Shown here: positions 17,394-18,400 of the stretch, piece after piece
How the letters are laid out: each line of letters opens with the position of its first letter
Position numbering within the stretch: the stretch's first letter is position 1
From: an uncultured Chlamydiales bacterium
GTDB taxonomy: Bacteria; Chlamydiota; Chlamydiia; Chlamydiales; JAAKFR01
Length of the DNA: 64,000 nt
Direction of reading: 5' to 3'
Assembly (NCBI GenBank): GCA_963699155.1
Contig: OY969414.1
Location: 427,757 to 491,756 of the forward strand
Notes under the pieces: generated by a model
Databases searched by the model: none
Seen by the model: only the letters and a program-made list of their open reading frames with translations
Told to the model about the DNA's origin: nothing
Program-made: the position numbers and the translations under genes

Positions 17394-17474
17394 ACAAAAT
17401 TCGTGCCCTTGCTCAACTTGCTCGAATGTATTGCCAGGCTTCGCCTCTCCGCTACTACCATCTCGCAGTGATTC

Positions 17475-17611
17475 TAAGGGGAGGGCCCCTCTCCCACCCA
17501 TTTTGGGAGAGGTTTAGCGAAGTGGCAGTTATTTGCCCAAGACATTACTATTGATCTTAAAGGGCTTCTCATAGATCTGTCGGGCGGATCTGTCACTTGC
17601 GTGTCAGATCC
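17475..17611. repeat. Diverged half-copy of the hairpin MITE arm
   Basis: TAAGGGGAGGGCCCCT...CCCATTTTGGGAGAG...CCAAGACA...GATCTTAAA...TGTCGGGCGG...GTCACTT..GTGTCAG is collinear with 17657-17830. Confidence 0.75.
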
Positions 17612-17621
17612 CCCTGCGACC

Positions 17622-18020
17622 TAATGCCGTCAAGTTAAGGAAGTCTGCAGTTATTATAAGGGGAGGGCCCCTCGCATCACTACGTTCGCTCGCCCCCCTC
17701 CCCTTAAACCCCTCTCCCGCCCATGTTTGGGAGAGATTTTCCAGAATGGAGTCTAAGCAACCAAGACAGTACAATCGATCTTAAAAAGCAGCTTATATAC
17801 ATGTCGGGTGGGTTGCGTCACTTCGTGTCAGCAACCGCCCGACAGATAAATGAGAAGCCATTTAGGATCCATGTTGTGTCTTGGCAAATATCCTCGCGGA
17901 GTCGACAGATCTCTCCCAAAAATGGGTGGGGGAGGGGTTAAAAGGGGAGGGGGGCGAGCGCAAAGCGCGAGGGGCCCTCCCCTTATAATAACTGCGGATT
18001 TCCTTAACTTGACGGTATTA
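17622..18020. mobile_element. 399-bp non-autonomous MITE, palindromic over its whole length, IS4-like ends, 10-bp target-site duplication
   Basis: 54-bp terminal inverted repeats with 3 mismatches (TAATGCCGTCAAGTTAAG...CTTAACTTGACGGTATTA); direct repeat CCCTGCGACC at 17612-17621 and 18021-18030; no transposase ORF. Confidence 0.88.
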
Positions 18021-18084
18021 CCCTGCGACCCTTTGAGCCGCATCTTGCTTTGCCATATCGCTTCCTCGCTGGGCGCCTACGGCG

Positions 18085-18186
18085 CGGTCCCGCACTTTCT
18101 GGTGCTGGTTAAACCCTGAGGCGGTGAAAGTATCTCAGGTTACATCTTGCGTGAGTAATGCCTCGCCATTCCTGCCTGCGAACGGG
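18085..18186. repeat. 102-nt structured repeat module, copy 1
   Basis: 93/102 identical and ungapped against 60185-60286; internal hairpins GCAC/GTGC, CCTGAG/CTCAGG, GAGT/A(T/C)TC. Confidence 0.9.
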
Positions 18187-18400
18187 GGGCTGTACACAGT
18201 ACTAGCCCCCACGCTTCGCTCAGCTCCGGAAGCGATCTGGCTTTGCAATCTGCGGCCGCGGACTACTCGCGCACTCATCCCCCACCGTGACTTACGTCTC
18301 ATGGTGGGGCCCCTTTCGTGTCAGCTCGTAGACATACTTGGGGGAGGTCCCCTCGCTTCGCTCGCCCACCTCCCCCATGCCCCCTCCCCCACCCATCCTT
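18187..18400. repeat. Cluster of short hairpins ending in a short MITE-arm-like unit
   Basis: GGGGCT..AGCCCC, CCCCACC..GGTGGGG, and GGGGAGGTCCCCTCGCTTCGCTCGCCC similar to 17660-17697. Confidence 0.6.

Follow-up and report, generated by a model that had tools for sequence, protein, structure and literature searches.

A mosaic of hairpin-rich non-coding repeats in the genome of an uncultured Chlamydiales bacterium and the small elements found within it

Known repeat mosaics and the setting of the locus

Chlamydiae are usually held to be repeat-poor. MITEs with an IS4-family partner are known, such as the cassettes derived from IS231 in the Bacillus cereus group, and REPIN/RAYT systems were reportedly treated by Nunvar in 2010 and by Bertels and Rainey in 2011. 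REPs are targets of insertion sequences (PMC1525189); they have also been reported within other palindromes (PMC3733652; Di Nocera et al. 2013) and show a bias to convergent gaps (Delihas 2011, PMC3184786). NIMEs (Bentley et al. 2007, PMC1797815) consist of units of 50-150 bp set apart by short inverted repeats, and further repeats and insertion sequences are nested among them.

We analysed a stretch of 64,000 nt (the window, bases 427757-491756 of the genome) from an uncultured Chlamydiales bacterium; unprefixed coordinates are window positions, and the prefix 'genome' marks genome positions. The source genome is a single contig of 2,399,326 bp (47.5% G+C), scored as 100% complete, and a self-comparison of it found 221,465 bases (9.2%), in 341 regions, that have at least one other copy. 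The locus studied here is a 1-kb repeat gap flanked by convergent genes, namely an ORF on the plus strand (469 aa, ending at 17393, with no Pfam family) and a GNAT acetyltransferase gene on the minus strand (ending at 18406). Orthologues of the upstream gene are present in the genomes G003, G001 and G004, and in both of those examined (G003 and G001) the downstream neighbours differ from the window's; a search for related loci with the upstream protein gave a single match, in an unrelated genome.

Comparison of 17394-18405 with the genome by BLASTN gave 193 HSPs at E<=1e-3. Repeat cover is continuous from 17486 to 18405, and the HSP ends cluster at 17486, 17622, 17839, 18020, 18029, 18071, 18186-18191, 18257-65 and 18396-18405, which are the module borders (Table 1), while the first ~90 nt (17394-17485) are unique DNA except for the remnant of one unit, hpA. 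A preliminary description of this DNA had claimed that the ~1-kb non-coding gap is built of reusable parts, and this holds: 17486-18405 is all repeat, and its parts recur elsewhere in other combinations (BLASTN and profiles). De novo single-linkage clustering of repeat segments fused 183 segments into one family, and genome-wide module counts were obtained instead with profiles seeded by hand from the window and iterated with nhmmer. Profile matches in the genome number 54 for element B, 40 for hpA (the unit A of the preliminary description), 17 for the outer MITE arm, 40 for Pcore (each palindrome half taken separately), 20 for Xl, 22 for XrC, and 25 for S85, an 85-nt module that is absent at the 17394-18405 locus. 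All positions given in the preliminary description were recovered, with the one correction that the deleted short form of unit A is the copy at 17465-17515 and not the one at 18340; the hpA profile matches 17657-17738 (+), 17909-17985 (-), 18341-18404 (+) and 60280-60339; module B, previously placed at 18085 and 60185, is matched at 18079-18189 and 60184-60286.

Table 1. Coordinates of the repeat modules and mobile elements in the window, with the evidence for each
Feature	Position	Strand	Evidence
5' part of backbone CE: hpA remnant with internal deletion (17465-17515) and Pcore (17522-17621)	17465..17621	+	direct repeats D1/D4; alignment with 7 paralogous loci; Pcore profile match genome 445278-445379
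Pcore end at 17621: central hairpin TGTCGGGCGG..GTCAC..GTGTCAG..CCCCCTGCGACC	within 17522-17621	+	
Left copy of 10-bp target-site duplication CCCTGCGACC	17612..17621	.	read directly
MITE, 399 bp	17622..18020	+	54-nt arms 94% complementary; 100% identical genome copy; termini those of 1368-bp IS4-family element
MITE outer arms TAATGCCGTCAAGTTAAGG..	17623-17660, 17982-18019		
MITE hpA units, one per arm	17657-17738, 17909-17985	+, -	
MITE central Pcore palindrome	17746-17891		
Right copy of target-site duplication CCCTGCGACC	18021..18030	.	read directly
Left arm of backbone X hairpin (Xl 18030-18069)	18030..18077	+	Xl profile match; pairs with 18228-18256
Element B: cap GCGCC-TAC-GGCGC and core GGTCCCGCAC...CTGCCTGCGAACGGGG	18078..18190	+	nhmmer census; 6 paralogous backbone copies without exactly these 113 nt
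Small apical hairpin, right arm of X and segment C	18191..18335	+	XrC profile match genome 445949-446091
Terminal hpA' of backbone, direct repeat of hpA	18341..18404	+	hpA profile match genome 446097-446160; D3, 78% to 17685-17729
Solitary hpA with B copy (60178-60290) in loop	60144..60339	+	hpA match 60280-60339, B match 60184-60286; empty paralogue genome 607851
IS3-family element (43190-44604, genes on - strand) between inverted arms 42942-43172 and 44605-44838	42942..44838	.	

Genome-wide, 51 clusters were annotated, and their module strings differ among loci. When merged clusters were sorted by gene context (with crude ORF calls and with insertion-sequence ORFs counted as genes), 23 of the 47 were convergent, 18 tandem, 5 divergent and one inside an ORF, as compared to a background for all gaps of 18% convergent, 64% tandem and 18% divergent.

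Clusters of this kind, in which palindromic units and other repeats are combined in an intergenic and locus-variable manner, have the mosaic build of BIMEs and NIMEs. The likeness is one of architecture only, not of membership: no PU Y/Z units (E. coli) or dRS3 units ATTCCC..GGGAAT (Neisseria) were noticed on reading the DNA. With BIME and REPIN/RAYT systems the locus shares mosaic clusters of palindromic units, a bias to convergent gaps and, in this genome, a RAYT gene flanked by inverted REPs; however, the RAYT's own REPs (~9 copies) are not B, hpA or the backbone repeat (CE), and B is not a hairpin doublet and has no GTAG or CGTC tag. As in the REP hot spots for insertion sequences, palindromes attract mobile elements, here at the hpA loop (an IS481-type element in 4/4 copies, B at 5 loci) and at the foot of the central hairpin (IS4-type), but the invader B is tiny, non-coding and without a known transposase, and the hosts are long composite repeats instead of 20-40-bp REPs. 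The architecture of the locus is closest to BIME/NIME mosaics, MITEs and REP-targeting insertion sequences. Such mosaics are already known, and to call the locus an undescribed system, as was done initially, was an overstatement; B's movement alone lacks an explanation. A literature search found no description of such repeats in chlamydiae, which is not proof that there is none.

The backbone repeat, the MITE and other mobile elements

According to an alignment of the window with seven other loci, the backbone CE is made, in this order, of hpA, a tail CCCCTCTCCC..GGGAGAG, Pcore, the X hairpin, segment C and a second hpA-like unit (hpA'). Pcore ends in a hairpin, followed by CCCCCTGC(GACC), and the arms of the X hairpin enclose a small apical hairpin (the fold z-score of 18029-18262 is -5.3). 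The order is fixed in 17 loci of the genome, several of which are inverted pairs, and CE is a single composite element. In every CE copy of this genome the target junction is occupied by S85 or by a T-type element, S85 taking the same place as the IS4-type elements. The sister species G002 has CE at 70-83% identity with none of the inserts; there, CCCTGCGACC joins the X hairpin directly and the target site is unoccupied, which is the kind of empty site in a relative that the preliminary description had proposed to look for. A search for the X hairpin with a covariance model (132 positions, 42 pairs) found it in 12 of 150 sampled genomes of the order, including several other families, with no match in six sampled genomes of the window's own family. 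G058, from another family, has 22 full-length X hairpin matches (80-96 bits), and in it CE forms both arms of ~620-nt foldback elements with the ends AGACATGTCGGG...CCCGACATGTCT.

The gap is probably one arm of this old hairpin-rich non-coding repeat, struck at least twice by younger small mobile elements. The old repeat would supply both a sequence target and hairpins, and younger elements would accumulate in both; clusters may persist where they are least harmful, that is, downstream of genes.

The backbone, and perhaps B, may also be functional RNA or protein-binding elements under selection (3' UTR stabilisers, terminators or small RNAs), a reading that we regard as possible, if on the doubtful side, and that is compatible with the mobile-element reading, not opposed to it. 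In an alignment of six CE sequences (from this genome and G002), 15 of the 62 predicted pairs are maintained through two-sided changes, and stem segments are flipped whole between copies within the genome, although the mechanics of palindromic DNA in themselves preserve pairing. Across families of the order the X hairpin persists with its unpaired motifs invariant, yet the repeats are patchy among genomes and their copy numbers vary widely, as in selfish DNA. Hairpin caps are often C-TTCG-G or C-TACG-G (as RNA, these are stable tetraloops) and clusters are enriched downstream of genes, both of which argue for a function; B alone, on the other hand, folds no better than its shuffles (z 0.11, -0.56, 0.52), and the consensus fold of 43 distinct B copies is weak (-3.7 and -6.7 kcal/mol). 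No Rfam family was matched either: the covariance models found only tRNAs in the window, and for 17300-18500 (E<=1) and three intact backbone copies they gave only long-hairpin microRNA models, far under the gathering scores.

The complete A-based MITE that had been noticed at 17622 is a 399-bp element with CCCTGCGACC on both sides (Table 1). Its 100% identical copy (genome 1229303-1229701) stands in the opposite orientation relative to its backbone and has the duplication CCCAGCGACC; the remaining copies are those at genome 2084516-2084915 (97%, duplication CCCTGCTTCC) and genome 607250-607616 (95%, truncated), and a minimal form of 121 bp is found at genome 2172708-2172827. The MITE thus occurs in four backbone copies, in both orientations and with three different target duplications, and because these duplications differ, at least three events are indicated. 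A 1368-bp IS4-family element with three copies in the genome has TAATGCCGTCAAGTTAAG at both ends, as does the MITE, and the terminal sequence common to the two is 18-23 nt long. The ORF of this element, at genome 941820-942860 in one copy, encodes an IS4-family transposase, as shown by matches to Pfam DDE_Tnp_1 (E 1.8e-19) and to NCBIfam model NF033592 for IS4 (133.9 bits, cut-off 115); by BLASTN, G002, G003 and G004 have no copy of the element. Target duplications have the same length, 10 bp, in the MITE copies (window, 1229k and 2084k) and in the insertion sequence at 941k, the matched pairs being CCCTGCGACC in the window, CCCAGCGACC at both 1229k and 941k, and CCCTGCTTCC at 2084k. The MITE is a non-autonomous derivative of the 1368-bp element, and an IS4 transposase had indeed been among the mobilisers suggested beforehand.

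A related 10-mer abuts all 16 complete T-type ends (CCC[TA]G... in 14 of the 16), so the transposase reads sequence; the target is always a CCCWGCGACC-like 10-mer, chosen by sequence and not for the hairpin as such. CE offers this 10-mer at the 3' foot of its central hairpin. Two MITEs that are 100% identical stand in separate copies of the backbone, oppositely oriented and flanked by unlike duplications, so the IS4-family transposase has acted in trans recently. We note that, with S85 or a T-type element in every CE copy, segmental copying of one event is possible for some of the MITE-bearing copies, and this counts against a backbone struck repeatedly by younger elements.

Like the IS231-type MITEs, the 399-bp element shares its termini with an IS4-family element of the same genome, makes a 10-bp duplication at a sequence-specific target, is present in several copies and has no transposase gene. 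It differs from them in its unusually long arms (54 nt paired, ~200 nt related per arm), in that these arms are made of pieces of the repeat it targets (hpA and Pcore), and in the existence of the 121-bp minimal form. As a MITE it is new but of an ordinary sort.

Other mobile elements differ in their relation to hairpins. The IS481-type element named above lies in the hpA loop in every copy, while neither a 1258-bp IS481-like element (11 copies) nor an IS21-type element (5 copies) showed a link to hairpins. The insertion sequence reported inside a palindrome at 42951-44830 is an IS3-family element, and it does lie between inverted arms, 86.6% alike over 238 nt and layered, from the outside inwards, into a CGCAAAG repeat, a middle piece and a 140-nt module that has 3 further solo copies. 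This holds for 1 of its 13 copies; the 12 other full copies are in ordinary DNA, 7 of them with readable 14-15-bp duplications and 5 with none readable, and the element has no preference for palindromes. The initial idea that the elements insert into one another's hairpins therefore survives for B and one IS481-type element (hpA loop, 4/4), but not for the MITE, which picks a 10-bp sequence, nor for the IS3-family element, nor for the backbone with its fixed order.

Element B and its candidate movers

Element B is 113 nt long and has its 54 matches in 35 loci (nhmmer census of the genome), including tandem arrays of 9, 4, 3, 2 and 2 units with periods of 111-112 nt. In the gap, its insertion point is the 5' foot of X's small apical hairpin. 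Empty sites were sought by searching both flanks of each locus separately for sites where the two flanks lie side by side, and in 10 contexts paralogous sites were found that either contain B or lack it exactly. The corrected gap is 0-1 nt at the three backbone positions (CE1, n=6 empty copies; CE2, n=7; CE3, n=6) and in four other hairpin families (H501, n=7, one with a gap of 8; H1409, n=4; H1807, n=7, plus one unclear junction; H1944, n=10, plus three with a gap of -5); it is -2 in the hpA loop (n=1), 3 nt in H1444 (n=1) and 2 nt at the 2375k array (n=1). The hpA case bears out the earlier observation of B within A at 60144, where B sits in the loop of the hpA at 60144-60339 and genome 607851 is the empty paralogue. 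With B at three backbone positions and in loops or feet of other hairpin families, and with exactly 113 nt missing at the paralogues, the parts are separable, as had been supposed.

When the empty sites were folded as single strands, the insertion point fell in an apical loop in 6-7 of the 10 contexts and at a hairpin foot in 3; a stem search in the B flanks (3/35 vs 0.3% of controls) was too strict and is superseded by this folding. B cores reach 97% identity across unrelated contexts. B is a separate 113-nt insertion, and we infer that it would be mobile DNA aimed at extruded hairpins, at either their single-stranded tip or their stem-loop junction. As many copies share a host family and may have spread with their host, the independent insertions amount to about a dozen contexts and not to 35.

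At its 5' junction, B has a perfect palindrome of 4-6 bp with a 3-4-nt loop, which varies in sequence by context, is absent at empty sites, and differs among sites even where the cores are 97% alike. The junctions often lack one or two host bases, and short G/C overlaps occur. Flank similarity gave no consistent target duplication (5.32 vs 4.80 +/- 1.77 for mismatched flanks; 38 distinct flank pairs, 2 copies skipped). High values of flank similarity come from the arrays. The strand bias relative to replication (22/35) is not significant. The lack of clear inverted ends and of a consistent duplication, the lost host bases and the site-variable 5' palindrome suggest that B may be inserted, at a hairpin tip or foot, by strand transfer or repair synthesis on single-stranded DNA, and not by DDE cut-and-paste.

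Among 400 genomes of the class, BLAST found no match of B outside this genome, and a pattern scan of metagenomes gave 86 matches that are ascribed to chance, with none of the 80 retrieved fitting the B profile. G002 contains a shorter homologue, B', in 5 copies, at least 3 of them beside or within backbone matches; its local score is 40 (shuffles, 20.1 +/- 2.3), and one aligned copy marks a fourth backbone site.

As compared to NIMEs, B arrays are similar in being ~100-nt cores separated by short palindromes; they differ in that the NIME separators are dRS3 with a fixed 6-bp inverted end, whereas B caps vary, and in that B is also found singly inside hairpin loops, with no link to a phage recombinase seen. 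B is the sole part of the locus without a known analogue.

Pfam and NCBIfam searches of the genome found no enzyme attributable to B. The sole tyrosine (HUH) transposase gene of the genome is a RAYT (genome 2227113-2227868; NCBIfam NF047646, 86.9 bits, cut-off 80), flanked by inverted REPs of a separate family with ~9 copies. These REPs share only the 7-mer CCGCACT with B, with local scores equalled by 3-97 of 200 shuffles, and a RAYT is also present in G004, a genome without B; RAYT was rejected as the mover of B, and with it hpA as a RAYT-moved REP (the flanking 9-copy family is not hpA or CE). B was not accepted as a REP or REPIN either, being neither a hairpin nor an inverted REP pair and folding no better than shuffles. 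Nor does it qualify as an IS200/IS605-type miniature: PF01797 gave nothing above cut-off in the genome except the weak RAYT match, the genome Pfam search found no TnpB domain, and the left flanks of B differ between contexts with no conserved short 5' sequence. An IS110/IS1111 DEDD transposase was excluded as mobiliser with 0 matches of PF01548 in the genome. RAYT/Y1 and IS110, both on the initial list of mobilisers, have accordingly been dropped.

Two readings of B are retained, a putative enzyme acting on hairpin DNA and copy-repair at hairpin tips. Quite tentatively, B and B' may represent an undescribed miniature mobile element with an unstructured ~100-nt core, which would integrate at the tip or foot of extruded hairpins without inverted ends or target duplication, form a new perfect 5' palindrome at each insertion, and owe its movement to an enzyme or a repair pathway that so far has no known connection with transposition. 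We consider it unlikely that recombination or templated repair without any transposase accounts for B, that is, that breaks at hairpin tips were patched by copying B through G/C microhomology, with arrays arising by slippage. Lost host bases, short G/C overlaps and no consistent target duplication would be in keeping with such patching, but the same 113 nt are missing every time, a regularity greater than patch repair usually produces. Fold-back synthesis would be expected to leave a site-variable perfect-palindrome cap, and no transposase can be linked to B; yet the usual hairpin-cutting nuclease was not found in the genome (SbcD C-terminal domain, one Pfam model only), and such repair would not account for the copying of B alone.

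Competing accounts of the whole locus and significance

It is very improbable that the locus is one decayed composite, in which all modules were once a single long element of fixed order and the differences between loci are deletions. For the backbone as such, the constant order in 17 loci, the clear internal deletions at 1022k, 154k and 2084k and the G058 backbone as the arm of one long foldback element would all fit; the other modules, however, do not follow it. B stands at three places of the backbone and also in loops of unrelated hairpin families, the MITE is present in both orientations with different 10-bp duplications, and S85 has 12 solo copies outside the backbone, with many copies at 82-93% identity in three sister species (G002, G003 and G004). 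Moreover, in the G002 backbone the CCCTGCGACC junction is intact and unoccupied, and B is missing from the G000 sites. The account of a decayed composite is largely refuted for B, the MITE and S85; the single fixed order against which the preliminary description had set its own idea is found for the backbone and not for these three. That the junctions are chimeric joins of repeats is scarcely credible, prone as repeat-rich DNA is to misassembly: the genome is one 2.40-Mb contig, junctions of the same types are found again at many loci whose flanks differ, and short contigs of paralogous copies from three soil metagenome runs (which may derive from the source sample) have B-B and B-C junctions like those of other loci.

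An old backbone struck by younger elements is thus the account we prefer. About 9% of the genome of this soil chlamydial relative is repeated DNA, in contrast with the repeat-poor view of the group, and at this single locus one can see how long non-coding mosaics are assembled in a genome of this kind. For studies of target choice, the IS4-family transposase would be convenient, having a defined 10-bp target and a natural substrate of 121-399 bp. The main weight lies on element B and on the deep conservation of the backbone. With its sequence and pairing conserved across chlamydial families, CE is a candidate functional RNA or a candidate long-lived selfish element; B, with junctions unlike those of any transposase family tested, would, if truly mobile, point to a hairpin-directed route of insertion.

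The backbone repeat and its surroundings

Orthologues of the ORF at window positions 15984-17393 are followed by different downstream genes in both of the related genomes that were compared (locus L142 in G003 and locus L143 in G001), and the repeat cluster from window position 17394 onward therefore occupies a gene-order break. Genome G058 belongs to another chlamydial family; there, the backbone repeat makes up foldback elements of about 620 nt (loci L157-L168) with the ends AGACATGTCGGG. In four of the 12 G058 copies one arm contains an additional hairpin of 27 nt whose loop is CTTCG, and three copies have an enlarged terminal hairpin, so growth via small palindromic inserts recurs in G058 too. 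For the X hairpin, one part of the backbone, comparison of two copies, at genome positions 2208490-2208621 and 1230784-1230914, shows a run of stem positions that is swapped between the arms (CAGATTGCAAAG / CTTTGCAATCTG versus CATCTTGCTTTG / CAAAGCAAGATG); the exchange looks as if a block of the stem had been flipped.

Other repeat families and the RAYT gene

Coordinates of the additional features are listed in the table below.

Additional repeats and the REP-associated tyrosine transposase gene
Feature	Coordinates	Matches or copies	Profile match
RAYT gene (L016/L035)	genome 2227113-2227868 (-), outside the window		NF047646, 86.9 bits
Small repeat family built on CGCAAAGACGCAAAGACGCAGAGAA	window 27744-27832, 34091-34210, 42939-42978, 44807-44842
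161-nt repeat	window 6670-6830	8 genome-wide
S85	genome 410557-410623	24 further matches, 0 in the window

The CGCAAAGACGCAAAGACGCAGAGAA family is abundant (58 segments by clustering of repeat segments), and its repeats lie outermost in the layered palindrome that surrounds the IS3-family copy in the window. The 161-nt repeat belongs among several families of 160-180 nt. S85 (about 67-85 nt) contains two small hairpins, the second of which (CCTCC..GGAGG) has a T run directly after it and is terminator-like; each of the four species in the genus has scattered solo copies, 82-93% identical, and the S85 sequence is far better conserved than the remaining repeats. The RAYT gene, which the Pfam Y1_Tnp model by itself did not detect (17.8 bits), is present as a single copy in the genome and has inverted REPs (GGGCGGCG-loop-CGCCGCACTCCAGGGAGCGC-TTCG-CGCTC) on both sides; this REP family has only about nine copies in the whole genome.

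Target duplications and long palindromes

IS3-family elements typically make duplications of 3-5 bp. Two element types have flanking direct duplications that are unusually long, at 14-15 bp (e.g. tgatgatgcgacggg): the IS3-family type found at window 43190-44604 and in 12 further copies, and a 1258-bp IS481-like element with 11 copies, one of them at genome 130547-131804. The IS3-family copy in the window itself has no flanking duplication. Using one Pfam model, for the SbcD C-terminal domain (PF12320), we found no match in the whole genome, whose completeness is scored at 100%; a real absence of the hairpin nuclease could partly explain the persistence of long palindromes.
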